A DNA stretch of 64,000 nt from Gammaproteobacteria bacterium Ga0077554. Its GTDB lineage: Bacteria > Pseudomonadota > Gammaproteobacteria > Ga0077554 > Ga007554. The stretch lies in NCBI GenBank assembly GCA_001464585.1, contig LNFF01000031.1, positions 67,148-131,147 on the forward strand. The letters run 5' to 3'. Of the stretch, positions 18,752 through 38,856 are shown one piece after another (the stretch's first letter is position 1; every line of letters begins with the position of its first letter). A program made the translations under genes and the position numbers. Under the pieces are notes generated by a model, which made no database searches, was not told where the DNA came from, and was given only the letters and a program-made list of their open reading frames with translations.

Positions 18752-21700
18752 TCAGGCGCGCTGTTTCAGCGAGAGAAGACGATCCAGCGGACAGGGCTTA
18801 TCTATGGCATACCCTTGCGCGTAGTCGACACCAATCTCGCAAAGCAGGTTGAGAATTTTGTCGTTTTCGACATATTCCGCCACCACTTTTTTATTCATGA
18901 AATGTCCAACCTCACAGATCGATTTTACCAACGCATAGTCGATGGAATTGACTTCCATATTTCTTACAAATACGCCGTCGATTTTAATGAAATCAACCGG
19001 CAAATTTTTAAGGTATGCATAGCTTGACATGCCACTTCCAAAGTCATCCAGCGCAAACATACAACCCGTTTTCTTAATCTCCGTTATAAATGCCGCCGCA
19101 TCCGAAAGATTGGTAATGCCGGCAGTTTCCGTGACCTCAAAACATATTTTATGCTGCGGGATCTGCGTGTTATTCATCTGCTCAAGGACAAAACCTATAA
19201 AGCTATCGTCGGTGATGCTTTGGCCTGAAAGATTGATGGTAAAAGCGGTAATATCCTCAAGGGCCTCGCGATGGTCCGCCATCCACTTAAAAACCTTTGT
19301 AATTACCCAGCGGTCCACTGCCGCCATACGCCCATACCATTCTGCCGCCTGTATGAATTCATGGGGAGATATAATATTTTTCTGGTCTTCCGCGACGCGC
19401 AGGAGTATCTCAAAATGGGGTTGTACCGAGGTGTCTCCATTAATCGGGACTATGCGCTGGCAGAAAAGTAGCAGGCGGTCTTCCTCCAGGATCCTGTCGA
19501 TTTTCCCCACCCATTTCATTACCGCGCTGTGCTGAACCAACTGGAAATTGTCAGCATGGTAGACTTGTAACCGGTTGCCTCCAGCAACTTTAGCAAGATT
19601 GCAGCTCGACTGTGCTGCCTGTAACAATTCTGTAATGTTATTACCGTGCGTATCCACCGGAACCAGCCCCATGCTCAGGGACACCGAAAAACGTTTGTCC
19701 TCCCACTCAAAGCGATAACCAGCAACGGCGTTAATCTGTTGCTCGGCAATAGCCCGTGCATCATCGGGAGAGGCGTTCTCCACAAGCATGCCGAACTCAT
19801 CACTACCCAGCCGCGCCAGCACGCCTCGGCCACTCAGCGTTTTCTTGAGTAACGCCGCCAGCTCCTTGAGCAGCGTATCACCGCCCACAGACCCGCAACT
19901 GTTATTGACCGCGCTGAACTTATCCACATCAACAAGACACAGCACATGTCGCAGACCGATCTGCTGCGCGCTCACCACAGCTTTGCCCAGCATGGACTCA
20001 AATTCCCGCCGGCTTATCAAGCCTGTCACCTGATCGTGGGTGGTTTCATAGAGCAGTTGCTTATGCAACTCCTGCAGTGCCGTATACTGCGCGCGATCCA
20101 TCGCCAGATCATCGGCATTGTCCAAGGGTATGGCATTGCCCAGACGCATTTTCCTGGCAAGATCCTTCGCACCAAGCACCTTCTCCTTCAGCCCCCGGGA
20201 ATTCACGAATACATAGACACCGCTGGTGGACTTGCTGACCCACGCAACCCGGAGCCGCTGCGCTTTTTCCTCATGCGTCAAAAACAGCATCCAGTCCCCT
20301 TCCTTGAGGCGGCGCGCTTGCTTCAACCACTTTTTCCATATCACATCGGCAGGATCTTCTGCGCTTTCTGGTTCATCGCCCCACTCTGCAACCACAGGGA
20401 CTTTCTCACATACCGTGACCACGTCCTTCACATTCTCTGCATAGGCCTTATCCTGCGCCTGGGTCAGCTTGTCCAACTGTACCAGAATCTTCGAAAATAC
20501 CTCGGAAGTGCCGTCGAACTCCTTGTTAATCCGGTCTATCAGACGGTCAATCGTATTCTTGATCGGGCTCTGGCTGGAACCAGTCTGTTCATTATCATGA
20601 ATTTCCAGTTGAGCAATCTTGTTTAGCACCTGGCGCGCGACATGGGCCCTGTCAAGAAACACTGTATTGTCCGCAAGGGTCAGCTTGAGAATAGGCAACT
20701 CGAGCCGCTTGAGCCAGGGTCTCACGCTCTCAGCGACGAGTGGATCATCCTGAATAGCATGAAAAAGATCACCAGCAACTTCCATGACACTGCTGTCATG
20801 TGCGCTGATCTCTTTATCAGCGCTTCCTGGATTAGCACGTTCCAGAACAGCGCGAACAAGGGATTTGATGTTTCTGGGCGCATTATTGCCAGCGATCTGA
20901 TCACTGTAATCTGCTTGCAAGCTGGCCAAAGCCGAAATGACATCCGAGACTGCGTATACCTGGCCGGGTGGCTGCGTTGATGGTGGCGGCTCACGATATG
21001 GCATTTGCACATCCGTGTGCGGCGGTCGCTCCCGGCATCCTGCCTCCCGCAACACTTGCACATCCGTGTGCGGCGCAAATACAGTTTCCGTCGGGCGCGA
21101 CACCTGATGCGCAACACCATCCCGAAGTCTGCGTATCTCGTGAGAGACCTGATATAGATTGCGTCCTCCCGGGCCAGCATTCCCAGTGATATTCGGGGGG
21201 ACATGCGGGGACGGCGCTACATCTCGTGGTGGCGCCGTATTTTCCCTAAGCACCCTGGATTTGAGATCGGGCAATACACCGAAGTCTACCAGGACAGCGT
21301 TGAGTTTTTGGTAAAGATCATTTGTTTTTTCAACAAGCACATCCTTGAAAACAGCGAGGCAGGCCGTGTTAGCCACCGGATCCAACCCCAGGGGTTTAAT
21401 GGCACTCAAGAAAGACTCTACAAAAAGGCCGGGGCCATAAGGGTTGTTATCTTTACCAATCGGTACATTACATACCATGGAGAGGCGTTGCTCTATCGCA
21501 AAGAGCAATTTCTTGTGCGTGGACTCAACATTGTAGTTAATATCCGAAATGGATAACCAGTCGGTCAGCGCATCATCTTCGACCAGCGACAACTCAGACA
21601 TGGGCACGCCATTTTTATCAGACGTTGCCTTCGATTGTGCTCTCAGTTGTTTGGGGGCAATATTTGCCAGGCGCTTATGGACGGCGACACGGAAAAGATC

Positions 21701-22381
21701 CGTCAGTGTTACGGCTGATCGATTCAGTACGTCACGTGCGTTAAAATACGAGTTCTGTTCCTTATGATTTTTTGTATCACGTGATAGTTCAAACATGCGG
21801 TTCGGCATTTTTGAGTTCACACTTTGAGAAATCCCATCAAGGGCGCTTTCGATTACACGGTTACATTCTTTCATGATCGTGTCGCCTTTCATATTATCGG
21901 TCATGTCACCGGTAACATTCATGGAAACATGGGATGTTTTTTCATCGCCAGGACTCGACCCCCTCGCGATGCTCCCCCCACTCGACATTCCAATGGCTGG
22001 CTGGATGGCAAAATCCTGCATGATCTGCAAAGCGGTCAGGTCAGGGTTAATGAACGCCATACCTGCGCCATCTTCAAAAGTACGGACAACACGTGCCTGA
22101 AATTGTAGCCGGTTATCCTGGTTTGTGGCCTGGACGATACAGTGGATGGTAATAATGTCGCCAGCAGCAGGTAAATGTCCCTGGGTGGCCGCCGCCAGAC
22201 TGGTAGGTTTCTGGTAGCTTAGAAGCATGCCGCCAATGCAGAAGTTACGTATGACGCATGACAGATGGGCGCCTCCTGCAACCCTGATGAATGCAGGCAG
22301 ATCTAAAGAATAACGCTGAAATGCACGCTTCCCTGCAGGATCAGCACACGTCTGCGATGGTGTTGAATAGTTGTTGTGCAT
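18752..22381 (-). CDS. Large c-di-GMP signalling protein: N-terminal PilZ-like domain, long middle region of unknown function, GGDEF domain with GSDEF variant motif, C-terminal EAL domain
   Basis: PilZ-like QRYSLDLPAFIRV...NFCIGGM. GGDEF region RLGSDEFGML. EAL region FEVTETAG...DDFGSGMSS...KIDGVFV. Preferred start is the ATG at 22381; the track start at 22504 lies inside repeat copy 4. Contains repeat copy 3 in frame. Confidence 0.65.
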   Translation of the reverse strand: MHNNYSTPSQTCADPAGKRAFQRYSLDLPAFIRVAGGAHLSCVIRNFCIGGMLLSYQKPTSLAAATQGHLPAAGDIITIHCIVQATNQDNRLQFQARVVRTFEDGAGMAFINPDLTALQIMQDFAIQPAIGMSSGGSIARGSSPGDEKTSHVSMNVTGDMTDNMKGDTIMKECNRVIESALDGISQSVNSKMPNRMFELSRDTKNHKEQNSYFNARDVLNRSAVTLTDLFRVAVHKRLANIAPKQLRAQSKATSDKNGVPMSELSLVEDDALTDWLSISDINYNVESTHKKLLFAIEQRLSMVCNVPIGKDNNPYGPGLFVESFLSAIKPLGLDPVANTACLAVFKDVLVEKTNDLYQKLNAVLVDFGVLPDLKSRVLRENTAPPRDVAPSPHVPPNITGNAGPGGRNLYQVSHEIRRLRDGVAHQVSRPTETVFAPHTDVQVLREAGCRERPPHTDVQMPYREPPPSTQPPGQVYAVSDVISALASLQADYSDQIAGNNAPRNIKSLVRAVLERANPGSADKEISAHDSSVMEVAGDLFHAIQDDPLVAESVRPWLKRLELPILKLTLADNTVFLDRAHVARQVLNKIAQLEIHDNEQTGSSQSPIKNTIDRLIDRINKEFDGTSEVFSKILVQLDKLTQAQDKAYAENVKDVVTVCEKVPVVAEWGDEPESAEDPADVIWKKWLKQARRLKEGDWMLFLTHEEKAQRLRVAWVSKSTSGVYVFVNSRGLKEKVLGAKDLARKMRLGNAIPLDNADDLAMDRAQYTALQELHKQLLYETTHDQVTGLISRREFESMLGKAVVSAQQIGLRHVLCLVDVDKFSAVNNSCGSVGGDTLLKELAALLKKTLSGRGVLARLGSDEFGMLVENASPDDARAIAEQQINAVAGYRFEWEDKRFSVSLSMGLVPVDTHGNNITELLQAAQSSCNLAKVAGGNRLQVYHADNFQLVQHSAVMKWVGKIDRILEEDRLLLFCQRIVPINGDTSVQPHFEILLRVAEDQKNIISPHEFIQAAEWYGRMAAVDRWVITKVFKWMADHREALEDITAFTINLSGQSITDDSFIGFVLEQMNNTQIPQHKICFEVTETAGITNLSDAAAFITEIKKTGCMFALDDFGSGMSSYAYLKNLPVDFIKIDGVFVRNMEVNSIDYALVKSICEVGHFMNKKVVAEYVENDKILNLLCEIGVDYAQGYAIDKPCPLDRLLSLKQRA
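20997..21064. repeat. Dispersed repeat, copy 3 (one 51-bp unit plus a 17-bp flanking direct repeat), intragenic and in frame in the PilZ-GGDEF-EAL gene
   Basis: cacatccgtgtgcggcg | gtcgctcccggcatcctgcctcccgcaacacttgcacatccgtgtgcggcg. Encodes PHTDVQVLREAGCRERPPHTDVQ on the minus strand. Confidence 0.8.
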
Positions 22382-22413
22382 CACTTCCTTAGCCTGACAC
22401 AGGAGGGTACCAC

Positions 22414-22565
22414 GGTCGCTTCCGGCATCCGACCGCCATGGATGGCGGAAGTGTCGAAAATGCAGGAGCATTTTTTCGACCTGCCTCTGGCGACACTTGT
22501 GCATCTCGGCAACTGCTCCTGCGTTGCTCTACCTTCCGCCATCCCTGGCGGTCGCATGCACGGCG
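22414..22565. repeat. Dispersed repeat, copy 4: composite of about 150 bp with two extra hairpin-containing segments nested in the unit
   Basis: ggtcgcttccggcatcc ... ctgcctctggcgacacttgtgcatc ... catgcacggcg, interrupted by segments containing ccgccatggatggcgg and ccgccatccctggcgg palindromes. Lies at or just upstream of the 5' end of the large c-di-GMP gene. Confidence 0.7.
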
Positions 22566-22856: not shown

Positions 22857-22933
22857 TGGTGCGCCCAGAGAGATTCGAACTCCCGACCGCCTGGTTCGTA
22901 GCCAGGTACTCTATCCAGCTGAGCTATGGGCGC
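22857..22933 (-). tRNA. tRNA-Arg (anticodon ACG)
   Basis: Reverse complement GCGCCCATAGCTCAGCTGGATAGAGTACCTGGCTACGAACCAGGCGGTCGGGAGTTCGAATCTCTCTGGGCGCACCA. Cloverleaf with CT-ACG-AA anticodon loop and 3' CCA. Confidence 0.9.
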
Positions 22934-23004: not shown

Positions 23005-23097
23005 TGGCGGAGAGAGAGGGATTCGAACCCTCGATGGAGTATTAAGCCCCATACTCCCTTAGCAGGGGAGCGCCTTCGACCACTCGGCCATCTCTCC
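23005..23097 (-). tRNA. tRNA-Ser (anticodon GCT), long variable arm
   Basis: Reverse complement GGAGAGATGGCCGAGTGGTCGAAGGCGCTCCCCTGCTAAGGGAG...GGGTTCGAATCCCTCTCTCTCCGCCA, 93 nt. The csrA - tRNA-Ser - tRNA-Arg order matches the E. coli csrA-serV-argV arrangement. Confidence 0.9.
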
Positions 23098-23690: not shown

Positions 23691-24923
23691 TTATTTTTTT
23701 GCTGCTATTGGAGCGTCCAGATTAAATGCTGCGTGCAAGGCGCGCACGCCTAATTCCAGGTATTTTTCATCGACCACCACGGAAATTTTTATTTCGGAGG
23801 TGGATATCATACGGATATTAATACCTTCAGTGGCCAGGGCGCGGAACATGGTGCTGGCAATGCCGGCATGGGAGCGCATGCCTACACCCACCAGGGAAAC
23901 TTTAACGATTTTGTTGTCGCCGGTAACTTCGCGTGCGCCTAAATCTTTGGCGACGCCGCGCAAGATCCGCAACGCCTTGTCGTAGTCGTTACGGTGGACG
24001 GTGAAGGTGAAGTCGGTTGTGGTGTCTTCGGCAATATTCTGCACGATCATGTCCACTTCAATATTCGCATCGGCCACCGGGCCAAGAATACGGTACGCCA
24101 CGCCCGGTTGGTCGGGGACGCCCAAAATCGTTAATTTGGCCTCATCTCGGTTAAAGGCGATGCCGGAAATTAGCGCCTGTTCCATGCTGTTTTCCTCAGA
24201 GGTAATCAACGTGCCCGACCCTTCGGTGAAGGACGACAGCACGCGCAACGGTACATTATATTTGCTGGCAAATTCTACCGAGCGGATCTGCAACACTTTG
24301 GCGCCCAGGCTCGCCATTTCCAGCATTTCTTCGTAGGTAATGCGGTCGAGGCGGCGCGCTTGCGGCACCACGCGGGGATCCGTGGTGTAGACGCCATCCA
24401 CATCGGTGTAAATCTGGCATTCATCGGCTTTCAGCGCAGCTGCCAAGGCGACGGCGGTGGTATCTGACCCGCCGCGACCCAAAGTGGTGATGCTGCCGTT
24501 TTCATCTACACCCTGAAAACCGGCCACCACCAGCACGCGACCACACGCCAGATCTTTACGCAACCGCTCGGCGTCAATTTCGGTGATGCGCGCTTTGTTA
24601 AAGGCGCTGTCGGTGAGAATGCGCACTTGCGCGCCAGTATAAGAACGCGCCGGACAGCCACGCTTTTCCAGCGCCATGCTCAGTAATGCGATAGTGACTT
24701 GTTCGCCGGTGGATAGCAACACATCCAGTTCACGCGGGTCGGGCTGCGCGGCGATGGCTTTGGCCAGTCCCAGCAGACGATCGGTTTCGCCCGTCATGGC
24801 CGACAGCACCACAATCAGGTCATCGCCTGCCGCACGCGCGGCGGCGACCTTGTCGGCCACTTTGCCAATGCGTTCCAGCGAACCCACCGAGGTGCCACCG
24901 TATTTTTGGACTATCAATGCCAC
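23691..24923 (-). CDS. lysC: Aspartate kinase (LysC-type, ACT-domain containing)
   Basis: ALIVQKYGGTSVGS...VVLSAMTGETDRLL kinase N-terminus and C-terminal ACT repeats. Likely GTG start at 24923 (V-ALIVQKYGG). The track ORF extends 75 codons further upstream with no family support. Confidence 0.7.
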   Translation of the reverse strand: MALIVQKYGGTSVGSLERIGKVADKVAAARAAGDDLIVVLSAMTGETDRLLGLAKAIAAQPDPRELDVLLSTGEQVTIALLSMALEKRGCPARSYTGAQVRILTDSAFNKARITEIDAERLRKDLACGRVLVVAGFQGVDENGSITTLGRGGSDTTAVALAAALKADECQIYTDVDGVYTTDPRVVPQARRLDRITYEEMLEMASLGAKVLQIRSVEFASKYNVPLRVLSSFTEGSGTLITSEENSMEQALISGIAFNRDEAKLTILGVPDQPGVAYRILGPVADANIEVDMIVQNIAEDTTTDFTFTVHRNDYDKALRILRGVAKDLGAREVTGDNKIVKVSLVGVGMRSHAGIASTMFRALATEGINIRMISTSEIKISVVVDEKYLELGVRALHAAFNLDAPIAAKK

Positions 24924-25306
24924 TAGTTTCGCCGGATAGATCAAGAAGCCAGAAAAAGACGGGGATTTTACTTTAATACCGGGGAAAAGGGAACTATTAT
25001 CCTGTGGCAACTCGACATGCAGCACCCACCGTTGCGGTAGTCCGGCGCGTTGTGTAGTATCGGTTTGGGTATCCGATGTGCGTCTCGATAACCCACATCT
25101 TGCAGAAATGGCAGCACCCAACCCACGCTTTTTACAGTAATAAATCAACCCTAAATGGTGAATTTTGCAACTGCTTCGAATGCAAACAATTAAAGATTAT
25201 TAATTTTTTTTATGTAAATAGTGAAAGTTATTAATTTTTGTTTTTTTATTTCGCAACATACACTGACAGTAAGTAGCAAGCCACATACCTATTGGGGGAT
25301 CAAACC

Positions 25307-25633
25307 ATGAGACGGCTGGAACAGAAAAAACTACTGACCATCATCACCTCGCGCGCATTCGAAAAAATTATTATCGAGGCGGTGCGCATGCGCGGTGTCG
25401 GCGGCTATACCGTGGTGCAGGCCAGCAGCGGAGCCGGTGCTTCCGGGACTCAGGCGGGCATGTTCGACGGCGACTCCAACATCCTGATTTATATTATTAT
25501 GTCGGAGGCTCGCCTGGTCACCGTGCTTGATGATCTCGAAGACATGATGAACCGGGGCTACCGGATCAAGGCGGTCGTGACGGACATCTCGATCCTGCCA
25601 CGCAAGAATGCCTCCGGCGCATCCACGAACTAG
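25307..25633 (+). CDS. sbtB: P-II-like signalling protein, SbtB-like
   Basis: KKLLTIITSRAFEKIIIEAVRMRGVGGYTVV resembles SbtB/P-II (KKLVIVTEKILLKKI...GAKGYTVM). ATG at 25307 with GGGGGA RBS. Immediately upstream of the SbtA-family permease. Confidence 0.6.
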   Translation: MRRLEQKKLLTIITSRAFEKIIIEAVRMRGVGGYTVVQASSGAGASGTQAGMFDGDSNILIYIIMSEARLVTVLDDLEDMMNRGYRIKAVVTDISILPRKNASGASTN

Positions 25634-25874
25634 TCCTACTGTGTCACAAAGCGATCAAGGGATGCAGTGCAAGGCGAAATCGGGCGAAAAAGCGGAGTTT
25701 ACACGAAGTAAATGAGCATTTTGAGCCCGATTTTAACGCCGCAATGCGCCCTTCAGCGCTTTGTGACACAGTAGGGCTGGCACCGGAACTGGATGGAGCT
25801 ACCCTCGGGCACGAGTCCTCAGCACCGAAAAATCATATAATAAATAAGCCGATAGAAAATCAGGAAGATGCACC

Positions 25875-26879
25875 ATGGACATCAAATTATTTGCCACCCT
25901 GCTTGATCCCGCCATTTTATTCTTTTTCCTGGGCATATTTGCCGCGCTGGTGCGATCCAATCTGGAGATACCGGCGCCCATCGCCAAATTCCTGTCCTTG
26001 TACCTGCTCATGGCGATAGGTATCAAAGGTGGGGTGGCCTTGAGCGTGAGCGGCTTCCATATGCAGATGCTGGTCGGGCTTGCGATCGCGCTGTTCATGG
26101 CCTTCCTTGTGCCGCTGTACACCTTTCCCCTGCTGCGCCGCAAGCTCGACGGCTTCAACGCCGCCGCCATCGCGGCAACCTATGGCTCGGTGAGCGCGGT
26201 GACCTTTATCGCCGCTGGACAATTCCTCGACAATCAGGGTATCGAATACGGCGGATACATGGCGGTGGCGCTGGTGATTATGGAGGCGCCGGCCGTGATC
26301 ATGGCGGTAGGGCTCGCCGCCATGACGCGCGCGAGCCTGGCGAAGCACGGCGCGGGCGCTGCAGTGACGAATATTGGGCAACATGACGGTTCGTTTTCAT
26401 TGAAAAAGATCCTGCACGAGTCGTTCACCGACGGGGCCATCCTCTTGCTGATGGGGAGTCTCTTAATCGGCTTTATCGTGGGGGCGGAGAGCTATAAGGT
26501 CATGAAGCCTTTCACCGGCGACCTGTTCAAGGGCTTGTTAGCATTTTTCCTGTTGGAGATGGGAATTCTGGTCGCCCGGCGCATCCGCGAGATGAAGGGT
26601 GTAGGGCCGTTCCTTATAGCCTTTGCCTTCCTGATACCGGTGGTCAACGCGGTGATTGTCATCACCTTGTCCCACCTCGCCGGCTTATCAGCGGGGGATA
26701 CGCTGATGCTCGCGGTGCTCGCGGCGAGCGCCTCCTATATCGTGGTGCCGGCGGTAGTCCGCGTCGCCATTCCGGAGGCAAATCCGGGACTCTACTTCGG
26801 CATGGCGCTGGCGCTCACCTTCCCGTTCAACGTCGTGCTCGGGATACCGATGTATTACCAAATGATCCAACTTTTGTGA
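25875..26879 (+). CDS. sbtA: SbtA-family sodium-dependent bicarbonate transporter-like permease
   Basis: LSLYLLMAIGIKGGVAL, AAIAATYGSVSAVTF and C-terminal MLAVLAASASYIVVP...AIPEANPGLYFG segments align by eye with cyanobacterial SbtA (LLTKIGLTGG, ALATGGLFGAVSG, VLAVIAASSSDISGPP..IPSANPSAYIG). Confidence 0.65.
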   Translation: MDIKLFATLLDPAILFFFLGIFAALVRSNLEIPAPIAKFLSLYLLMAIGIKGGVALSVSGFHMQMLVGLAIALFMAFLVPLYTFPLLRRKLDGFNAAAIAATYGSVSAVTFIAAGQFLDNQGIEYGGYMAVALVIMEAPAVIMAVGLAAMTRASLAKHGAGAAVTNIGQHDGSFSLKKILHESFTDGAILLLMGSLLIGFIVGAESYKVMKPFTGDLFKGLLAFFLLEMGILVARRIREMKGVGPFLIAFAFLIPVVNAVIVITLSHLAGLSAGDTLMLAVLAASASYIVVPAVVRVAIPEANPGLYFGMALALTFPFNVVLGIPMYYQMIQLL

Positions 26880-26890
26880 GCAGTTAAGCC

Positions 26891-27754
26891 ATGAGCCCGA
26901 CGCCGTCTTTGACCTATGCCGAAAGCCGGGTGGCCCTGCTCACCCAGCACGGCAAGGAAGGTGTGATCGCCCCGGTGCTTGATACGGCGCTCGGCTGCCG
27001 GGTCGAGCGGGTGGCTGGCTACGACACGGATCTCCTCGGCACCTTCACCCGCGACATTCCGCGCGCAGGCATGCAGCTTGAGGCGGCACGCAAGAAGGCG
27101 CGCATCGGTATGCGGCTTTCCGGTCTGCCGCTCGGGCTCGCCAGCGAGGGCTCGTTCGGCCTCGACCCGTTCGCGGGGATGTTTCCCTGGAACGTGGAGT
27201 TCCTGATTTTTCTTGATGATGAGCGCGGCCTGGAGGTCGTGGGCGTAGCCCAGGGCGCGGCGAACTTCTCCCACCTGCTGACGGACGATTGGGCTGCGGC
27301 CGAGGCCTTCGCCAAGCAGGCGGGATTTCCCGCACACCATCTGGTGGTACGCCCCGAGAGCGAGGACGACCCGCGCATGCGCAAGGGGATCGCCGCCTGG
27401 GTAGCGCTGGAAGCCGTCTTTGCCTGGGCGCTTGCTGCATCGGCCAGCGGGCGGGTATTCGTCGAAACCGACGTGCGCGTGCGCGCCCATGCCAATCCCA
27501 CGCGCATGGACAACATCCGCCTGGCGGCCGAAGACCTGGTGAAAAAGCTGCGCTCGCTCTGTCCGTCCTGCGGCACGCCAGGATTCTGGATCGTCGAGCG
27601 CGTGGATGGTCTCCCGTGCGAAGCCTGCGGCGCACCCACGCGCGAAACCCGCGCCGAGATTCTCGGCTGCCTCAAGTGCCCGCACCGCGAGACCCGCAAG
27701 CGGGCCGACCGGCAATACGCCGATCCGAGCCGCTGCGACTCCTGCAACCCCTGA
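26891..27754 (+). CDS. Hypothetical protein with C-terminal four-CxxC zinc-ribbon-like region, possibly translationally coupled to sbtA
   Basis: Starts 12 nt after the sbtA stop. Strong GC3 bias in this frame; the overlapping minus-strand ORFs are judged antisense artefacts. C-terminus CPSCG...CEACG...CLKCP...CDSC. Confidence 0.5.
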   Translation: MSPTPSLTYAESRVALLTQHGKEGVIAPVLDTALGCRVERVAGYDTDLLGTFTRDIPRAGMQLEAARKKARIGMRLSGLPLGLASEGSFGLDPFAGMFPWNVEFLIFLDDERGLEVVGVAQGAANFSHLLTDDWAAAEAFAKQAGFPAHHLVVRPESEDDPRMRKGIAAWVALEAVFAWALAASASGRVFVETDVRVRAHANPTRMDNIRLAAEDLVKKLRSLCPSCGTPGFWIVERVDGLPCEACGAPTRETRAEILGCLKCPHRETRKRADRQYADPSRCDSCNP

Positions 27755-28162
27755 CGCTCGCATGAGATCATGACCTTTAACGATTTCGTGAAAACTGGTG
27801 GAAAACCCGCACTGGCTCGTTTGCAGGATTCCATCCGCAAACGGGCAACATGGGCAGTGATTTGTAGTGGGTAACCCTCGGTAAGCGCAGGGAAAACAGC
27901 AAGGAATAGTCAGCCAAAAATCCGTCCGTCCTGACCCTTCGTCCGCCTGAGGTTGGAAGTTGATTGCCTACTGTATTCCACATAGAGGCGCCATAATATA
28001 TCCTTCCTGGCACAAAATAATCATTTATAAAAATGAATGCACATAGTAAAAAAGATTAACTATTGTTTTTCGATGCCCGGACATAGACTGACCCCAACCA
28101 AAAAACTATGGATACTACGGTACAGGTATGTGCATGAATTGGTCTGATTTAAACGCGTCACT

Positions 28163-30454
28163 ATGAGCGGCCTTCCCGAAGTTTCTGAAAAACCGCAAAA
28201 CGGGATAAAAGGCCTGAAGTACTGGCGCTATGACCTGCTGGCGGGTCTGCAGGTCGCCCTGGTGTCATTGCCGTTGTCACTGGGCATCGCCATCGCCTCG
28301 GGCGCGCCGCCGGTGACGGGCGTGATCTCCGCAATTATTGCCGGATTGATCTTCCCCTTCCTGGGCGGTGCTTATGTCACTATCAGCGGGCCGGCGGCGG
28401 GGCTGGCTCCGGCGCTGCTCGCGGGCATGGTGATGCTCGGCGGCGGCGATCTTGCGGCGGGTTATCCGGTGTTGCTGGTGGCGATCTGCCTTACCGGTCT
28501 GCTGCAGGTGGTACTGGCTTTGTTCAAGGCTGGACGCTTTGCGTTGTTTCTTCCGGTGACGGTGGTCGAGGGGATGCTGGCGGCGATCGGCATCATGATT
28601 ATCGTTAAACAGATCCCGGCACTGCTGGGCGATTTCGTGCCGCCCGCGAAGAGCATGCTGGTGACGATTTCGAACCTGCCCGGCAGTTTCTTCAGGTTCG
28701 ATCCGGCGATCACGTTGATCGGTGGCGTCTGCCTGTTCCTGATGTTCTACCTCAATCGCACGCACCATGCCTGGCTGCGGCGCATTCCGGCGCCGCTGTC
28801 CGTGGCAGGCATCGGCATCGGGCTTGGCTACCTGTTACAGCTTGACCCAAGGTATCTGATCACCATGCCCGGCAATATCATTGAGGGCGGCATCACGTTG
28901 CCAGCTTTCGATACGGTGTGGAATAACCCGGATCTGTGGTGGACAATACTGCTGGTGGTGATCACGCTTACGCTTATTGACGGCATTGAGTCACTGGCGA
29001 CCATCGCTGCGGTGGACAAGATCGATCCTTATCAACGCAAATCGGATCCCAACGTGACGCTACGCGCCATGGGCGTGTCAAACACGTTGTCGAGTATCTT
29101 TGGTGGGCTCACCATCATCCCCGGTGGCGTCAAAAGCCGCGTTAACATTGATGCGGGTGGGCGCACCTTGTGGGCCAACTTTTACAATGCGATGTTCCTG
29201 ATCGCGTTTCTATTCCTCGCCAAGGATTTGATCAGCCGCATCCCGCTTGCCGCCATCGGCGCGATTCTGGTGTATGTCGGCTGGCGGTTATGCGAGATCC
29301 AGGTGTTCCGTAAAACTTTCCGCATCGGGCGAGACCAGATCATCATTTTTGTGACAACGGTCACGGCGGTTCTCGCCACCGATCTTCTGTTCGGGATCCT
29401 GATTGGCGTCGTGGCGAAGATCGCGCTGCACGTGTACCTGCTCACGCCGTCGTTGCGTGCGGTGCTGACGGGACGCCTCACCTTTATCCAGTCGTGGCGG
29501 CTGTTGTGGGAAAATTTCTCGGGACTGTTCCGCAGCCCGGTTATCAAGGTCAAAGAAATCACTGACGGCGAGCATACGCAGCAGCACTACCGCATCTCGC
29601 TCGGCTCGATCGTGTGCTTCAATCTGCTGCCGTTCGACAAGTTGCTGCAATCCCTGCCACCCACGGCGGGCATCACGCTCGCCATCACTGAATCCGGCCA
29701 TATTATTGACCACACGGCGATGGAATACCTGCACCAGTTCCAGGAAGCGTGCCTGCAGACGGGCCGGCCCTTCGAGATGCTCGGCCTGGAGAATTTCTAC
29801 CCGTTTACGTCCCATCCATTGTCGGCGCGCATGCGCGATGCGAAACTCGTCAAGGACAAGGCGCAGATGTCAACACGCGAACAGCAGATGGCTGAGGTGG
29901 CGAGTCATTATGGTTTCCAGTTCACGCCGGACACGGTGGGCATGTTCAACAGCCACGATTTTATCTACCTGCGCCGTGGCAACAACCGTCAGGAGAGTTG
30001 TGTAATGACGGGGTCTTATCAGGGTTGCCGTATCAAGCTCTTCGATTACAGCCACACCGCCGCCCCGGATTATTACGCGGAGCACCGCCACACGCTGATC
30101 CAGCTCTACCGCCTGGAGACGGGCGATGTACAACTGCCAAATCTTGCGATCACGCCCGGAGAATATCTTGAACGTTACCTGGTGGAATATCAGGAAGTGG
30201 ATATGGCAGGCTGCCCGGGACTCGCCCCGCACTACCGTTTCTACGCGCAAGATCCTGCGCAGGCGCTGGCCTTTATCAGAACAGGACTCGAACAGTTGTT
30301 AAGTCAGCACCCCGGTATATATGTGGAGATCCGCAACAACGCCCTCCTGGCTTTTCGCCCGGATGAAGCGCTGGAACCCCCGGAGGCCATCGCATTATTG
30401 CTCGAATTCGCCGGGCTTGTGGGCAGCGCGCGCCGCGCGCCAGGCGCCCAATGA
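28163..30454 (+). CDS. SulP-family anion transporter (BicA-like) with STAS domain and an additional C-terminal extension of about 230 aa of unknown function
   Basis: N-terminal SulP signature (LKYWRYDLLAGLQVALVSLPLSLGIAIASGAPP). STAS-like region (...ITLAITESGHIIDHTAMEYLHQF). 763 aa against roughly 550-600 aa for typical SulP proteins. Confidence 0.65.
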   Translation: MSGLPEVSEKPQNGIKGLKYWRYDLLAGLQVALVSLPLSLGIAIASGAPPVTGVISAIIAGLIFPFLGGAYVTISGPAAGLAPALLAGMVMLGGGDLAAGYPVLLVAICLTGLLQVVLALFKAGRFALFLPVTVVEGMLAAIGIMIIVKQIPALLGDFVPPAKSMLVTISNLPGSFFRFDPAITLIGGVCLFLMFYLNRTHHAWLRRIPAPLSVAGIGIGLGYLLQLDPRYLITMPGNIIEGGITLPAFDTVWNNPDLWWTILLVVITLTLIDGIESLATIAAVDKIDPYQRKSDPNVTLRAMGVSNTLSSIFGGLTIIPGGVKSRVNIDAGGRTLWANFYNAMFLIAFLFLAKDLISRIPLAAIGAILVYVGWRLCEIQVFRKTFRIGRDQIIIFVTTVTAVLATDLLFGILIGVVAKIALHVYLLTPSLRAVLTGRLTFIQSWRLLWENFSGLFRSPVIKVKEITDGEHTQQHYRISLGSIVCFNLLPFDKLLQSLPPTAGITLAITESGHIIDHTAMEYLHQFQEACLQTGRPFEMLGLENFYPFTSHPLSARMRDAKLVKDKAQMSTREQQMAEVASHYGFQFTPDTVGMFNSHDFIYLRRGNNRQESCVMTGSYQGCRIKLFDYSHTAAPDYYAEHRHTLIQLYRLETGDVQLPNLAITPGEYLERYLVEYQEVDMAGCPGLAPHYRFYAQDPAQALAFIRTGLEQLLSQHPGIYVEIRNNALLAFRPDEALEPPEAIALLLEFAGLVGSARRAPGAQ

Positions 30455-30474: not shown

Positions 30475-31398
30475 TTATCCATCGTTGGGCTCTGGAATTT
30501 TGATGAGTTTATTTCCTTCTTGCAGCACAAACTCCTTGAATGCCTGGGCCGCAGCGGAAAAGCGCTTGCCCTCCCGATGCACGATGTACCAGTCTTTCAG
30601 GATAGGAAAACCTTCCACATTCAGCAACACCAACCGCCCCAGCTTAAATTCCATTTCCAGCGTATGCACCGATACGATACCCAGCCCCAGCCCCGCCATT
30701 ACAGCGTGTTTGATGGCTTCGTTACCGCTCATCTCCATGGTGGTGGTCATAGTCTGACCGTGTTGCTCGAGAAAGCGCTCAATGGCATTGCGTGTGCCCG
30801 ACCCTCTTTCGCGCACAATGAAGCTTTCTTCCAGAAGTCTGTGCAATGGAATACGACCGCTATGCGCCAAGGGATGGCCGGAGGGGGCAATGACCACCAA
30901 TGGGTTGCTCATGAACGAATCGGCTATCAACGGCATCTCTTTCGGCGGGCCGCCCATGATCGCCATGTCGGGAATATTATCCATCAATTGACGCAGAATC
31001 GTTTCCCGGTTGGTTACGTTGAGATTAACGGTAATCCCGGCATGCTGCTTGCAAAATGCCGCCAGTAGATAGGGTGCAAAATATTTTGCGGTGCTGGTGA
31101 CGGCGATGTCGAGCTTGCCGTGCTGGATGCCTTTCATATCCTCCAGCACGGCGCGGATATCGGTGAACTGTTGGGCAATGGTGCGGCTGAACACATACAT
31201 TTCACGCCCTGCGGCGGTGAGGAAAATCTTTTTTCCCATGTGTTCAAACAGCGGCATGCCCACTTCCTCTTCAAGCTGTTTAATCTGAATGGAAACGGCG
31301 GGTTGGGTGAGGTGGAGCTCTTCAGAGGCGCGTGTGAAACTTGAGTTGCGGGCGACTGCCTCAAGTAGCTTGAGCTGCCTGAAAGTGAAGTTCTTCAT
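30475..31398 (-). CDS. cbbR: LysR-family transcriptional regulator CbbR (divergent from cbbL)
   Basis: N-terminal HTH FRQLKLLEAVARNSSFTRASEELHLTQPAVSIQIKQLEEEVG. Divergently oriented immediately upstream of the form I RuBisCO genes. ATG at 31398 preferred over the track start. Confidence 0.8.
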   Translation of the reverse strand: MKNFTFRQLKLLEAVARNSSFTRASEELHLTQPAVSIQIKQLEEEVGMPLFEHMGKKIFLTAAGREMYVFSRTIAQQFTDIRAVLEDMKGIQHGKLDIAVTSTAKYFAPYLLAAFCKQHAGITVNLNVTNRETILRQLMDNIPDMAIMGGPPKEMPLIADSFMSNPLVVIAPSGHPLAHSGRIPLHRLLEESFIVRERGSGTRNAIERFLEQHGQTMTTTMEMSGNEAIKHAVMAGLGLGIVSVHTLEMEFKLGRLVLLNVEGFPILKDWYIVHREGKRFSAAAQAFKEFVLQEGNKLIKIPEPNDG

Positions 31399-31619
31399 CT
31401 TTAAAATATGCTCCTTGATTAAACGGCCGTGTATCTGTGAGCGGCACAATCCATTTGCAATAATATATGAATAGTATAATAATAATTAATTATCAATAAT
31501 GATTCAATTTATTTATAGTCTTTTTTAACTAACACAGGGTTTGGGTCATCAAAGTGGTTTTATTGGTAGTAGCGTTTTTTAATTATGGCTTTCGGGCTGA
31601 AGCTGAAAGGAGATGGTAA
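31399..31619. promoter_or_regulatory. cbbR-cbbL divergent promoter/operator region (AT-rich)
   Basis: 221-bp AT-rich intergenic region between divergent cbbR and cbbL. RBS AAAGGAG ahead of the cbbL ATG. Confidence 0.5.
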
Positions 31620-33044
31620 ATGAGTGATAAGAAAAAATTTAGCGCGGGTGTTAAAGAATATCGACAGAACTACTGGATGCCCAATTATGTGCCTCTGGAC
31701 ACCGATATTCTAGCGTGCTTCAAGATCGTCCCGCAAGCGGGTGTAGACCGTGAAGAAGTCGCCGCTGCCGTGGCCGCCGAATCTTCCACCGGCACCTGGA
31801 CCACAGTGTGGACCGACCTGTTGACCGACATGGATTATTACAAGGGCCGCGCCTACCGCATCGAAGACGTGCCCGGTGATGACACCTGCTTCTATGCTTT
31901 CGTTGCTTACCCGATTGACCTGTTCGAAGAAGGCTCCGTGGTCAACGTGTTTACCTCGCTGGTGGGTAACGTTTTCGGCTTTAAAGCCCTGCGTGCGCTG
32001 CGCCTTGAAGATGTGCGCTTCCCCATCGCTTATGTGAAAACCTGCGGCGGCCCGCCCAGCGGTATTCAGGTTGAGCGTGACAAGATGAACAAGTACGGTC
32101 GTCCATTGCTGGGCTGCACCATCAAGCCCAAGCTCGGCTTGTCTGCCAAGAACTACGGCCGTGCGGTATACGAATGCCTGCGCGGTGGCCTGGATTTCAC
32201 CAAGGACGACGAGAACATTAACAGCCAGCCCTTTATGCGCTGGCGTGACCGCTTCCTGTTTGTGCATGACGCAACCCTGTCCGCACAAGCTGAAACCGGC
32301 GAGCGTAAAGGCCACTACCTGAATGTCACCGCACCGACCCCGGAAATGATGTATCAGCGTGCTGAGTTCGCCAAAGAAATCGGCGCACCGATCATCATGC
32401 ACGATTACATCACCGGCGGCTTCTGCGCCAATACGGGTCTGGCCAACTGGTGCCGTGACAACGGTATGCTGCTGCATATCCATCGCGCCATGCACGCTGT
32501 AATCGACCGTAACCCGCACCACGGTATTCACTTCCGCGTGCTGGCAAAGATTCTGCGCCTCTCCGGCGGTGACCATCTGCACTCGGGCACCGTAGTTGGC
32601 AAGCTCGAAGGTGATCGCGCGCCGACCCTGGGTTTTGTTGACTTGATGCGTGAATCATTCATTCCTGAAGACCGCTCGCGCGGCATTTTCTTCGATCAGG
32701 ACTGGGGCTCCATGCCTGGCGTATTCCCGGTGGCATCCGGTGGTATTCACGTCTGGCACATGCCGGCACTGGTGAACATTTTCGGCGATGATTCGATTCT
32801 GCAATTCGGTGGTGGAACGCTCGGCCATCCATGGGGTAACGCCGCAGGTGCCTGCGCTAACCGTGTCGCACTTGAAGCCTGTGTTGATGCGCGCAATGAA
32901 GGCCGTGAAATTGAACGTGAAGGCAAAGAGATTCTTGCCAACGCCGCCAAGACCAGCCCCGAATTGAAAATCGCCATGGAAACCTGGAAAGAGATCAAGT
33001 TCGAGTTTGATACCGTGGATAAGCTGGACGTAGTGAACCGTTAA
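31620..33044 (+). CDS. cbbL: RuBisCO large subunit, form IA
   Basis: 474 aa; [20 protein letters not shown]...[24 protein letters not shown]...; carboxysome-type gene context. Confidence 0.95.
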
Positions 33045-33112
33045 TTTTTGGCTCGCTTTTTCTGAGTTGCATGATACGTGGGTGTTAAAACGCCTCTGCA
33101 AATGACCACTTT

Positions 33113-33153
33113 CGCCGTATATGTCGCCATTCATGAAATGGCAATATACGGCG
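33113..33153 (+). other. Stable imperfect hairpin in the cbbL-cbbS intergenic region
   Basis: cgccgtatatgtcgccatt catgaa atggcaatatacggcg. Possible processing or stability element between the large and small subunit cistrons. Confidence 0.5.
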
Positions 33154-33175
33154 ATTCAAAAGAAAGGAAATAAAA

Positions 33176-33508
33176 ATGTCTGATATTCAAGATTACAAAT
33201 CAACGCCCAAATTTGAAACCTTTTCGTATTTGCCAGCGATGACGCCGGAAAAAACCCGCCGTCAGATCGCCTACATTGTGAGTCAGGGCTGGAACCCGGG
33301 CATTGAACATGTAGAGCCTGAACGCGCTTTTAATTATTACTGGTATATGTGGAAGTTGCCGATGTTTGGTGAGCAGTCGGTCGATGTCATCATCGCTGAA
33401 CTGGAAGCCTGTCACCGCGCGCATCCCAATAACCACGTGCGACTGATCGGCTACGACAATTACTCGCAGAGTCAGGGCAGCGCTTTCGTGGTGTTTCGCG
33501 GCCGGTAA
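33176..33508 (+). CDS. cbbS: RuBisCO small subunit
   Basis: 110 aa, [20 protein letters not shown]...[13 protein letters not shown]. Confidence 0.95.
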
Positions 33509-33532
33509 TCCGATGCCTAGGTAAGCAACCGA

Positions 33533-33562
33533 TAGTGGGCGATCCGGCACAGGCTCGCCCAC
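33533..33562 (+). other. Hairpin (gtgggcga...tcgcccac) between cbbS and csoS2; possible partial terminator or attenuator
   Basis: 8-bp GC-rich stem with 12-nt loop, no clear U-tract. Confidence 0.35.
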
Positions 33563-33613
33563 GTATCACATGAATTGCCGATTGTAGTAAAAGTGTAATG
33601 GAAGGATAAAAGC

Positions 33614-35890: not shown

Positions 35891-35895
35891 TCTGA

Positions 35896-37527
35896 ATGAA
35901 TACTCGCAACCGCCCCGCGCGTAGCACAAGCTCATTAGCTGGAGTACGCCCCACCCCTTACGGGCTGGGGACGCCAAGCGGTGCCTTGCCCGGACGCCAG
36001 CCTGCCTATGCCTATCCGGCGCGGCAGCCAGTGCATACGGTGGCGAGCACAGCGAGCGCGATGGAACCCAACCCGGCCTGCACGATACAGAGCGGCCGTT
36101 TGTGTCGCCACCCATTGACGAACGACATTGAAAATCGGCGTTTGCTGGCGCATGAGCGAACCATTAAGGAACGCTTTGCCAATATCGTTCCGGTATTGAA
36201 GCGCATTGCTGGCTTACAGCATACGCCAGACTTTGTCGAGCAGGCGCAAGCCATTGCCGTTCAGGAGCTGGGCTTTTCGCTACGCACCTCGATTCTCGCG
36301 GATGCCTGGGCGACTGATCTTGATATGCGCGCCCTGTACGGCGAAAGTGTGCTGGGTACATTACGTTTACTGGCGGAGCAAACCCGCGCAGCAAATCCGA
36401 CTGAAACCGGGGAAGGAAACGTAGATGAGGCGATGTCATTTTTACTGGATTGTGGTTACCACGCCGTGGACATTTCGCCTTGCTCGGACGGGCGATTAAA
36501 AGGCTTGGCGCGTTACATTTTACGCCTGCCCGCCGCTGCGGTGCGCAGCCGCAAGTCGTATGCTGGCGCAATGTTTGATGTGGAGGCCAATGTAAAACGC
36601 TGGGTCGAAACCGAGTTGATGCGTTTTCGTGAAGGCCGCCCAGTCACCGCTGATGCCGGTACGCGTTATCTGAAGATGGTGGTATACCACACCAGCAGTT
36701 CTGATCCCGCGCACGAGGGTTGCGCCGCGCATGGCAGCAATGAAACCCAGGCGGCAGGAAAAGGGCTGGAGCGCTTGCGCGAGTTCCGCCAGGCGATTGA
36801 AAACAGTTTTTGTTGTGGTGCATCGGTGGATATGTTGCTGGTGGGTGTCGATACCGATACCGATGCAATCAAGGTACACATACCCGATGCTGACGGTGAG
36901 ATAAGTTTGTATCGCGCCGTGGATAACCTGAGCCTGTATCGCGAGACGGTCAACGATAGCGAAAACAGCGCGCGGCTCAAGGTGTATCAGGCGATTCAGG
37001 CGGCCAGCGCCAAAGAGGGCTGGGCCGGCGGCAACGGCGAACCTCATGAAGGTATGCGGCGTTTGATTGCCACGCTGTTGATTAACAACCTGTCGCAGAT
37101 CGAATATGTGTGCGGCAACTGGGGTGGACGTTACCCCGACATCGGGCATAACGAACGCTTTATCAGTGTCGGCGATGGCTTTGAAGAATTTCAGTTACGC
37201 AACCTGGCGTACTTCGCCCACCTGCATACAGTGGAAGAAGGCGCGCCGGATATGGATATCGGTATTAAAATTTTCAAAATGTTGAACGTGAGCCATGGCT
37301 TGCCGATCCCACTGGCAATTCACTTCCGCTACGACAGTCGCGTGCCGGGTAACCGTGAACGCACCGTGGAACGCTGCCAGCGCATCAAGGCAGCAATTGA
37401 ATCGCGCTATAGCGAGTTGGCGCGTCAAGGGCTATTAGTGAGCGGCATGACAGTACAGGATAAACAGCCTGGCAGCCCGATTGAATTGATCGGCACCAGT
37501 GGCACTGAAAGTTTTGCGGGGCACTGA
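35896..37527 (+). CDS. csoSCA: Carboxysome shell carbonic anhydrase CsoSCA (CsoS3)
   Basis: 543 aa, CSDGRLKG motif; position after csoS2. Confidence 0.85.
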   Translation: MNTRNRPARSTSSLAGVRPTPYGLGTPSGALPGRQPAYAYPARQPVHTVASTASAMEPNPACTIQSGRLCRHPLTNDIENRRLLAHERTIKERFANIVPVLKRIAGLQHTPDFVEQAQAIAVQELGFSLRTSILADAWATDLDMRALYGESVLGTLRLLAEQTRAANPTETGEGNVDEAMSFLLDCGYHAVDISPCSDGRLKGLARYILRLPAAAVRSRKSYAGAMFDVEANVKRWVETELMRFREGRPVTADAGTRYLKMVVYHTSSSDPAHEGCAAHGSNETQAAGKGLERLREFRQAIENSFCCGASVDMLLVGVDTDTDAIKVHIPDADGEISLYRAVDNLSLYRETVNDSENSARLKVYQAIQAASAKEGWAGGNGEPHEGMRRLIATLLINNLSQIEYVCGNWGGRYPDIGHNERFISVGDGFEEFQLRNLAYFAHLHTVEEGAPDMDIGIKIFKMLNVSHGLPIPLAIHFRYDSRVPGNRERTVERCQRIKAAIESRYSELARQGLLVSGMTVQDKQPGSPIELIGTSGTESFAGH

Positions 37528-37776
37528 ATGAAAATTTGTCAGGTGGAAAAAACCCTGGTTTCGACCAACCGGATTAAAGAGATGGGGCATCGCCCATTGC
37601 TGGTGGTGAAAGAAAAAGGTGGTACACGCAGCATCGCAGTAGATGCCGTGGGCTGCATCCCAGGCGACTGGGTGATTTGCGTAGGCTCATCTGCTGCACG
37701 CGAAGCCGCAGGCAGCAAGGAATATCCCAGCGACCTGACCATCGTCGGCATCATCGACCATTGGTCAGAAGACTGA
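37528..37776 (+). CDS. csoS4A: Carboxysome vertex protein CsoS4A (EutN/CcmL family)
   Basis: 82 aa, MKICQVEKTLVSTNRIKEMGHRPLLVV... Confidence 0.85.
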   Translation: MKICQVEKTLVSTNRIKEMGHRPLLVVKEKGGTRSIAVDAVGCIPGDWVICVGSSAAREAAGSKEYPSDLTIVGIIDHWSED

Positions 37777-37777
37777 C

Positions 37778-38041: not shown

Positions 38042-38118
38042 AAACGAAGTCGTGGTTGTTTGAGAAAACAGTTTTTATTAACGTAGCTTTATATTAACGT
38101 AAACTTAAGGAGTGCAAG

Positions 38119-38418: not shown

Positions 38419-38473
38419 AGGTGTATCGTTTAACAACGTTTAATAACTAAATGTAAAGAGAAGGAAATATATC

Positions 38474-38773: not shown

Positions 38774-38856
38774 TATATCACCGGGTTCAGCCTCGGTTTA
38801 AAGAAGCGTCGTTTAATAACGCTTAACAATCAGATGAAAAGAGAAGGAAATATATC

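Follow-up and report, generated by a model that had tools for sequence, protein, structure and literature searches.

The DNA stretch analysed here, referred to as the window, comprises 64,000 nucleotides of Gammaproteobacteria bacterium Ga0077554 (assembly GCA_001464585.1, contig LNFF01000031.1, positions 67,148 to 131,147). Between lysC and a CbbR-like regulatory gene, it contains four genes on the plus strand, which encode a P-II-like protein, an Sbt_1 permease, a member of the Pfam family DUF6671, and a SulP transporter. An alpha-carboxysome locus lies beside them. An earlier reading of this DNA (the original prediction) had described the first three genes as a compact module for inorganic carbon uptake next to a carboxysome locus. 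All three open reading frames (ORFs) were recovered at the predicted coordinates on the plus strand, and a complete alpha-carboxysome gene set was found by Pfam analysis. The module, however, is really a cassette of four genes, as SulP shares its composition and its genomic association. The main subject of this report is the third gene: DUF6671 has probably been overlooked as a component of carbon uptake. The features of the region are as follows.

25307-25633, plus strand: P-II-like gene, 108 amino acids (Pfam P-II, 2.3e-9; DUF190, 1.2e-5)
25632-25778, no strand: palindromic hairpin of 147 nt (inverted-repeat and RNA-fold computation)
25875-26879, plus strand: Sbt_1 permease, 334 amino acids (PF05982, 7.4e-113)
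26880-26890, plus strand: spacer of 11 nt between Sbt_1 and DUF6671 (sequence read directly)
26891-27754, plus strand: DUF6671 protein, 287 amino acids (PF20376, 1.7e-43)
27473-27484, plus strand: in-frame 6-bp tandem duplication (GTGCGC twice) inside the DUF6671 gene (alignment and sequence reading)
28163-30454, plus strand: SulP-family transporter, 763 amino acids (PF00916, 1.2e-50, residues 23-398)
23691-25025, minus strand: lysC, the left flank of the cassette
30475-31449, minus strand: LysR-type regulator, CbbR-like, divergent from cbbL (HTH_1 and LysR_substrate)
31620-44053, plus strand: alpha-carboxysome locus (Pfam families)

The 287-aa protein matched the PF20376 profile (DUF6671) with 149 bits at a cut-off of 23.8, covering profile positions 3-217 of 217. 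Homologues of this protein are numerous: 2683 in a collection clustered at 90%, with 1864 representatives when clustered at 50%. Among the sequences of Pfam, NCBIfam, and PDB, no characterised family was matched, only DUF6671; a match to a well-characterised unrelated family, which would have spoken against the original prediction, was thus not found. Neither DUF6671 nor the permease has a model in NCBIfam. Searches of PDB chains and Pfam with the single sequence and with a 68-sequence profile returned zinc-ribbon look-alikes only (ribosomal S27ae/L37e, eIF2-beta, and RPB12), which give no information on the N-terminal domain. Our statements on invariance are based on an alignment of 68 DUF6671 homologues (A1). 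The invariant positions include four CxxC pairs (C224/227, C243/246, C260/263, and C282/285) and the C-terminal CNP, so that the zinc-ribbon-like tail noticed earlier is confirmed, as well as H20, K22, R58, K69, E86, E103, D194, R198, and R205. No mention of the family was found in a literature search for DUF6671 or PF20376, and a search for DabA in combination with a zinc ribbon gave nothing. Neither the DAB2 structure paper nor the MpsABC paper describes a DUF6671-like partner.

The genomic context of DUF6671 was surveyed in 77 species-level loci and several distant members, all designated by L-numbers. Neighbouring genes were identified with tblastn and Pfam and by matching them to solved structures; as ORF clustering in GC-rich loci produced many shadow ORFs, the neighbours used had been confirmed by tblastn or Pfam. 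The contigs of P0246 and P0267 did not extend far enough to reveal the gene context, and a single-protein scan of metagenome contigs yielded one locus. An Sbt_1 gene is located directly upstream of DUF6671 in the clade of the window (L006, L007, L010, L011, L014, and L073) and in a metagenomic member with 39% identity (L090). In Polynucleobacter (L068-L071), the order is LysR-Sbt_1-DUF6671, with DUF6671 proteins of about 50% identity and no P-II gene detected in these loci. Conservation of the 287-aa ORF beside sbtA, the point on which the proposal had been made to depend, therefore holds in its own clade, in Polynucleobacter, and in L090. Other orders are DUF6671-Sbt_1-P-II (L049), Sbt_1-purE-DUF6671 (L044), and, in Cryobacterium, P-II-Sbt_1 divergent from MarR-DUF6671.

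The family also accompanies DIC (dissolved inorganic carbon) systems of other types. The order dabB-dabA-DUF6671 was found in at least 11 loci (L017, L032, L036, L042, L048, L051, L055, L076, L088, L089, and L092), which are scattered over the DUF6671 tree. The ORF coordinates in L017 give a 4-nt overlap between the stop of dabA and the start of DUF6671, and a 1029-aa DabA::DUF6671 fusion is encoded behind LysR and dabB in L083 (8001-11090). Two cyanobacterial loci (L078 and L079) contain the full order cmpA-porin-cmpB-cmpC-cmpD-DUF6671, and in a third one (L077) matches to CmpA/B/C lie upstream of DUF6671; the cyanobacterial binding protein scored 623 bits against CmpA versus 447 against NrtA. 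Methylobacter displays the order SulP-beta-carbonic anhydrase (CA)-DUF6671. Another Methylobacter locus (L058, 6019-10834) consists of a regulatory gene, assigned by eye as TetR-like, and the genes bestrophin-beta-CA-DUF2490-SBF-DUF6671, where SBF is an SBF-family transporter; in this methanotroph, the cluster may be a bicarbonate channel module based on bestrophin. A SulP gene of the window type precedes DUF6671 directly in L008 and L053. The former locus, in which cbbR is followed by SulP-DUF6671-TerB and, further on, by Sbt_1 directly before cbbL and csoS2, represents a second, different carboxysome-linked arrangement.

In total, 48 of 73 species-level loci of the GTDB contained a DIC gene within the 10 kb or less of DNA covered around DUF6671. 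The DUF6671 sequences were collapsed by identity, because copies of a mobile island make the raw counts overstate independence. After collapse at 80% identity, a DIC gene was present in 25 of 38 clusters (P ~1e-23 against a deliberately generous null of 5%); at 70% identity, the corresponding number was 10 of 17. Against this null, the association between DUF6671 and DIC genes is far beyond chance. The co-occurrence proposed for sbtA was found in these species-level loci and turned out to be wider than sbtA. DUF6671 accompanies several unrelated DIC systems in at least ten different gene arrangements, which come from Proteobacteria, Planctomycetia, Actinobacteria, cyanobacteria, and a contig of possible Chlamydiae origin. 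In a neighbour-joining tree, DUF6671 proteins with different types of partner are interleaved, and proteins 75-80% identical to that of the window adjoin Sbt_1, DabA, SulP, or Na_Ca_ex. The genetic link of DUF6671 to DIC uptake is strong. The suggestion that the third gene encodes an undescribed component has gained weight, as the family follows dabBA, cmpABCD, and SulP/beta-CA genes too and is fused to DabA in one case.

The structure of the 287-aa protein was modelled with AlphaFold2 on the 68-sequence alignment, and the model was compared by Foldseek, as the original prediction had proposed. The model is confident (pLDDT 95.6; pTM 0.91) and consists of an alpha/beta domain (approximately residues 13-220) and, after it, beta-hairpin ribbons with the four CxxC pairs. 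All top hits in PDB belong to the ITPase-like superfamily, namely PH1917 NTPase, YjjX, human ITPA, Mj0226, KomC, and Maf (probability 1.0, E ~1e-3, and TM-scores, relative to the target, of 0.40-0.56 over ~140 columns). The viral library BFVD independently yielded polyproteins of cassava brown streak and euphorbia ringspot viruses and a giant-virus inosine/xanthosine triphosphatase. The descriptions of the viral hits do not name the matched domain; HAM1 is encoded by these two potyviruses. Hhalign with E. coli RdgB gave low-probability alignments only (24% for the RdgB sequence alone, 41% for a profile of two sequences), and for E. coli YjjX the result was negative (1%), although YjjX had the best TM-score. 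In the low-probability RdgB alignment, K22 pairs with K13, K69 with K53, and S85-E86 with D68-D69; the aligned motifs are LLTQ-HGKE with LATGNVGKVRE, K69-A with K53-A, and A-S-E-G-S with A-D-D-S-G. We take K13, K53, and D68/D69 of RdgB to be phosphate- and Mg-binding positions.

The N-terminal ~210 residues of DUF6671 thus find their best and most consistent fold match in the superfamily of HAM1/ITPA/RdgB, YjjX, and Maf. In the low-probability alignment with RdgB, three motifs (beta1-loop-Lys, helix Lys-Ala, and the acidic 'A-x-E/D-G/S') fall in the order that they have in RdgB. The DUF6671 proteins differ from the known ITPases by an inserted subdomain (~residues 128-183), the C-terminal motif ETDMRAHxNPTRM, and the added double zinc ribbon. 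We know of no ITPase encoded together with transporters. By the model, this domain likely has an ITPase/HAM1-like fold suited to binding nucleotide phosphates; DUF6671 is a candidate member of the superfamily. The tail is predicted to form two Cys4 zinc ribbons that would bind zinc.

The interpretation we favour, with somewhat better than even confidence, is that the region is a DIC uptake cassette serving the adjacent alpha-carboxysome and that DUF6671 acts as a soluble, nucleotide-dependent accessory of bicarbonate-accumulating systems. A functional link of DUF6671 to DIC uptake is very probable, while nucleotide-dependent biochemistry, suggested by the modelled fold, is a tentative part of this interpretation. 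The protein would be expressed from the same transcript as the permease and, instead of being a passenger, would serve in the cytoplasm as a general accessory to systems that increase the bicarbonate level of the cell. It may act on or sense a common soluble ligand, such as a nucleotide or a derivative tied to the bicarbonate pool or to the energy state, as a hydrolase or a sensor, with no lock-and-key regulation of one transporter. A ligand of this kind, rather than one particular transporter, is what the occurrence of similar DUF6671 proteins (~75-80%) with unrelated transporters and the interleaved tree argue for. The zinc ribbons may mediate contact with a conserved partner. A more daring version, in our opinion doubtful, is that DUF6671 is a missing, near-universal soluble component whose ITPase-type site hydrolyses or reports a nucleotide linked to high cytoplasmic bicarbonate. 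Candidate ligands would then be a bicarbonate-derived nucleotide adduct or a nucleotide signalling carbon status. TsaC and PurK produce carbamoyl or carboxy nucleotides as unstable intermediates, and the presence of genes for Sua5/TsaC, PurE/PurK, BioD, and PyrC near DUF6671 is compatible with the idea of an adduct.

Several observations weigh against this interpretation. About one third of the loci have no DIC gene in the DNA covered. In some of them, DUF6671 is located between Sua5/TsaC and pyrC or near bioD/bioA; in others, it adjoins TerB/DUF533, Na_Ca_ex, or P-type ATPase genes. The Sbt-positive loci include eight that represent a single mobile island, either as copies or as close variants, and do not count as independent cases. 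The DabA::DUF6671 fusion was seen in one assembled contig, and the relation to ITPases is a fold-level one, for which the sequence-profile support is weak (24-41% for RdgB, none for YjjX). Finally, the window copy itself could be altered or impaired. Its tandem duplication GTGCGCGTGCGC adds Val-Arg in the most conserved motif of the family (ETD-VR-VRAH versus ETD-(M/V)RAH), an insertion of two residues that is unique to the window protein in A1 and accounts for its length of 287 aa versus 285 aa in the closest relatives. An identical 287-aa protein is encoded in the same context on contigs from drinking-water-plant and activated-carbon metagenomes; since this form occurs on five contigs, the insertion is not a sequencing error.

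Four other explanations were considered. DUF6671 could be a docking regulator analogous to SbtB or CPII, in which the zinc ribbons bind the transporter and a nucleotide in the ITPase-like domain gates transport. Its 'sbtB position' after Sbt_1, in some cases with no P-II gene (L069 and L090), its fusion to the cytoplasmic DabA subunit in one locus, the overlap of its start with the dabA stop codon in L017, and the nucleotide-binding fold of the model all fit this idea. Specific docking, however, should entail co-divergence with the partner, whereas DUF6671 proteins of 75-80% identity occur beside the structurally unrelated Sbt_1, DabA, SulP, and Na_Ca_ex, with the partner types interleaved. 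As P-II-like genes often co-occur with DUF6671, it is no simple replacement for them either, and we regard a docking role as rather unlikely. A primary function in Na+/Ca2+ homeostasis, with DUF6671 residing near DIC transporters since these are Na+-coupled and clustered with cation exporters, appears less likely still. The link to Na_Ca_ex is real and keeps this explanation alive: the exchanger gene immediately precedes DUF6671, overlapping it by 4 nt, in the island of the Vulcaniibacterium/Luteimonas type (L004) and immediately follows it in a member of 37% identity (L086), and TerB/DUF533, P-type cation ATPase, TerC, and LysR regulators (NhaR-like by eye) recur nearby. Yet DUF6671 also follows CmpABCD, which is ATP-driven and not Na+-coupled, as well as dabBA and SulP-beta-CA operons without a cation exporter, and most loci with Na_Ca_ex contain an Sbt_1-P-II pair in the same co-oriented cluster.

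That DUF6671 is an unrelated hitch-hiker in mobile or CO2-responsive islands could be supposed from the spread of one island of more than 20 kb with over 99% identity across Pollutimonas, Luteimonas, and Azoarcus, from the unusually high GC content of the gene in the window, and from the third of the loci with no DIC gene nearby. This is very improbable in view of at least ten arrangements with several unrelated DIC systems in various bacterial groups, which include overlapping stop and start codons and a fusion. Least probable of all is a new carbonic anhydrase or another CO2-hydrating enzyme with Cys-ligated zinc, for which eight invariant Cys residues, one invariant His, and the genomic company of CO2/HCO3- genes might speak. 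The Cys residues are arranged as two ribbon knuckles, which are of the structural kind, and no CA family was found in the Pfam, NCBIfam, or Foldseek results for DUF6671. A cytoplasmic CA would short-circuit a carboxysome-based CO2-concentrating mechanism (CCM; PMC10880623), and DUF6671 co-occurs with bona fide beta-CA and with the CA-like DabA. Identity with a carbonic anhydrase was rejected on these grounds: the lack of a family or fold match, the ribbon-type Cys residues, and CCM logic.

MpsC of the Staphylococcus mpsABC system, which is of the DAB type, resembles DUF6671 in being encoded by a third gene after a DabB/DabA-type pump. It is reportedly dispensable and not collocated with mpsAB homologues outside staphylococci (PMC6689103), while DUF6671 follows DAB operons in many lineages. 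MpsC was rejected as an equivalent of DUF6671 on the basis of these described properties.

The novelty lies in the accessory family and in how broadly it is associated, for which no prior description was found in our literature search. The parts assumed to make up a CCM are transporters, P-II-like regulators, carbonic anhydrases, and carboxysomes. Efforts are under way to reconstruct bacterial CCMs in E. coli and in the chloroplasts of crops, and transplanted bicarbonate transporters often perform poorly. DUF6671 is tied genetically to SbtA, DAB, BCT1 (Cmp), and SulP/beta-CA in both autotrophs and heterotrophs, which points to an overlooked shared cytoplasmic requirement of bicarbonate accumulation. 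Should the more daring version given above be true, the SbtA, DAB, BCT1, and SulP systems would depend on DUF6671 for their full activity or tolerance, including in heterologous hosts. A specialist in CCMs would find it surprising that a gene common to the clusters of SbtA, DAB, BCT1, and SulP/CA has been overlooked. The nucleotide-binding fold of the model also suggests a new link between inorganic carbon status and nucleotide metabolism or signalling. The overall interpretation given in the original prediction is thus supported and extended.

The permease of the window matched PF05982 over its full length (377 bits at a cut-off of 27, profile positions 1-308 of 308) and, judged by its sequence, is a probable Na+/HCO3- symporter. 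It aligned with the cyanobacterial SbtA Slr1512 (7cye) at E 8.2e-26 in two stretches, 8-162 and 171-333. The central loop is ~30 aa shorter, with residues 162-171 of the query facing 169-206 of the chain (~9 versus ~37 residues), and the observation that the permease lacks the long cytoplasmic loop of cyanobacterial SbtA was correct. The Sbt_1 gene has its own Shine-Dalgarno motif, AGGAAG, and the ATG of the P-II-like gene is preceded by GGGGGA. The DUF6671 gene follows the permease as predicted, at a distance of 11 nt instead of 12, and no obvious Shine-Dalgarno motif was read in this spacer (26880-26890). Given the short gap and this lack of a motif, translational coupling of DUF6671 to Sbt_1 is plausible. 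A scan for promoters and terminators in 24900-28300 gave a result no better than shuffled sequences.

The P-II-like protein scored 37.9 bits against Pfam P-II, above the cut-off of 25, and belongs to this family. Its best solved relatives are TTHA0516 (2cz4; 3e-6) and CPII (5d4n; 5e-3, which is a weak match), while the match to solved SbtB (6mm2) is weak, with an E of 0.41. For comparison, the canonical P-II encoded downstream of Sbt_1 in Vulcaniibacterium (L004) matches SbtB at 5e-9. The translated C-terminus, ILPRKNASGASTN, contains no Cys and no CGPxGC motif, which we take to be the C-terminal redox extension of cyanobacterial SbtB. The gene is located 241 nt upstream of the permease gene, not directly downstream as sbtB is, and the order P-II, then Sbt is kept in L006, L010, L011, and L073. 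On this basis, the protein appears to be a divergent member of the P-II superfamily, closer to TTHA0516 and CPII than to SbtB. The earlier description of an SbtB-like homolog ahead of the permease stands with regard to the family and the reversed order; the identity as SbtB does not hold up well, and the protein may work like SbtB but should not be filed under that name. CPII, too, is encoded alongside carboxysome and DIC-pump genes in Proteobacteria, and its ligands are adenine nucleotides and bicarbonate.

Compared with the cyanobacterial sbtA-sbtB pair (Slr1512/Slr1513; 7cyf and 7egk), the window has a permease of the same Pfam family, in which both inverted repeats align, paired with a small P-II-superfamily protein and placed among CCM genes. 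The differences are the reversed order, with P-II first and 241 nt between the genes, including an inserted hairpin; the central cytoplasmic loop, shorter by ~30 aa; the P-II-like protein, which barely matches SbtB (E 0.4) and has no CGPxGC motif; and the presence of a third gene, DUF6671, after the permease.

The hairpin immediately follows the stop codon of the P-II-like gene and is a near-perfect palindrome with 30-nt arms of 90% complementarity and a nested 15-nt pair. Its RNA fold has a computed energy of -91.4 kcal/mol (z = -12.2). The element occurs once in the window and is absent from the same spacer of the relatives L011 and L006. Other insertions were seen in the P-II/Sbt spacer of L006, L010, L011, and L073. 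This spacer seems to be a preferred target of small palindromic insertions resembling miniature inverted-repeat transposable elements (MITE) or repetitive extragenic palindromes (REP). No family exceeded the threshold in an Rfam scan of the hairpin. The sole sub-threshold match, to a plant miRNA precursor, was attributed to the hairpin shape and rejected. A canonical terminator was also ruled out, since the hairpin has no T-tract.

The SulP protein matched the BicA model at 5.7e-39, under the cut-off of that model. Its C-terminal 333 aa (29453-30451) gave no Pfam match, and no STAS domain was detected there. The same extension is present in the SulP proteins of L008 (72% identical) and L053 (61%), both encoded directly upstream of DUF6671. 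A DIC toolkit of Sbt_1 and SulP beside a proteobacterial carboxysome locus is a known arrangement (PMC10880623), and the window resembles the DIC transporters of chemolithoautotrophic Proteobacteria in that Sbt_1 and SulP genes adjoin cbbR and an alpha-carboxysome locus. It differs from the systems in that review by the accessory gene of the DUF6671 type, which is mentioned neither there nor in the other papers searched, and by the uncharacterised C-terminal domain of 333 aa in SulP.

The GC content at third codon positions (GC3) is 0.743 in the P-II-like gene, 0.773 in Sbt_1, 0.812 in DUF6671, and 0.741 in SulP, as compared with 0.591 ± 0.069 in the 27 other genes of the window. DUF6671 is the most GC-rich gene of the window, with a total GC of 0.676 versus 0.547 ± 0.037 in the other genes. 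The spacers flanking the cassette are AT-rich (GC 0.39 and 0.45). Per-gene computation therefore confirmed the high GC and GC3 noticed earlier in three genes between AT-rich flanks, and SulP has to be included. The DUF6671 protein is 78% identical to copies in high-GC Xanthomonadales, while the adjoining Sbt_1 shares only 41% with theirs. The composition of the cassette suggests horizontal acquisition but does not prove it. The distinct composition, the contrast between 78% and 41% identity, and the movement of the family on islands support a foreign origin at least for DUF6671. The relative L006 has the same csrA-lysC flank as the window, and related metagenome-assembled genomes (MAGs) carry the cassette in this flank, so the acquisition is not very recent. 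The horizontal acquisition put forward in the original prediction is thus consistent with the composition, with the provisos that the arrival was not very recent and that foreign origin is not proven. The genomes nearest to the window are those of Gallionella/Gallionellaceae and MAGs labelled 'Gammaproteobacteria'.

The mobile island shows more than 99% nucleotide identity over 20.8 kb between Pollutimonas (Burkholderiales), Luteimonas (Xanthomonadales), and Azoarcus (Rhodocyclales). It is a very recently spread mobile element for bicarbonate and cation handling, the ends of which lie beyond the 20.8-kb loci. Its gene order is LysR-hypothetical-Sbt_1-P-II-P-type ATPase-TerB/DUF533-Na_Ca_ex-DUF6671-pyrC-ilvD-bioA. 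The loci concerned are L024-L028, which correspond to the island over their whole 20.8 kb, and L029, L033, and L016; they are embedded in large contigs.

In loci with no adjacent transporter, DUF6671 is often found beside purE/purK, Sua5/TsaC, bioD/bioA, or pyrC. Examples are L044 (9437-12394 and 13171-13728), L036 (12412-13997), L013, L021, L045, and L081, and pyrC is a neighbour in many loci. These genes encode enzymes that either make use of CO2 or HCO3- or contain a carboxylated residue. Their proximity may be a coincidence or a clue to the substrate. An rdgB (ITPase) gene is located 2.3 kb from DUF6671 in L044. The contig with the DabA::DUF6671 fusion (L083) contains genes with weak or faint matches to DUF1539/DUF1548, which we take to be domains associated with Chlamydiae; its source organism may be chlamydia-like.

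Two tRNA genes on the minus strand of the window (22860-22933 and 23008-23097; 65.6 and 61.8 bits in Rfam) are located between a large PilZ-DUF1631-GGDEF-EAL gene (18752-22504) and csrA. Genes for tRNAs are common integration sites, and this pair may have a bearing on the shift in composition that lies a few kilobases downstream.

On the other side of the cassette, the CbbR-like regulator, 307 aa long in the gene call of the source contig, matched the NCBIfam CbbR model at 7.6e-86 with 287.9 bits, which is under the curated cut-off of 450. The carboxysome locus includes cbbL, cbbS, csoS2, csoSCA, two genes of the EutN/CcmL type (csoS4A/B-like), and BMC shell genes (csoS1-like), together with ferritin-like, ParA-like, cbbQ, cbbO-like VWA, and class-II aldolase genes. 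Pfam scanning identified CsoSCA (2e-113), EutN_CcmL twice, CbbQ_C, and VWA. BMC was found twice among the ORFs scanned, and a third ORF of 99 aa at 38474-38773 lay outside that scan. With cbbLS, csoS2, csoSCA, and genes of the csoS4 and csoS1 types all in one cluster, the locus is an alpha-carboxysome locus. A ferritin/rubrerythrin-like gene and the gene of a ParA-type ATPase are situated at 39228-40618, between the BMC shell genes and cbbQ; the latter is probably an McdA-like positioning protein.

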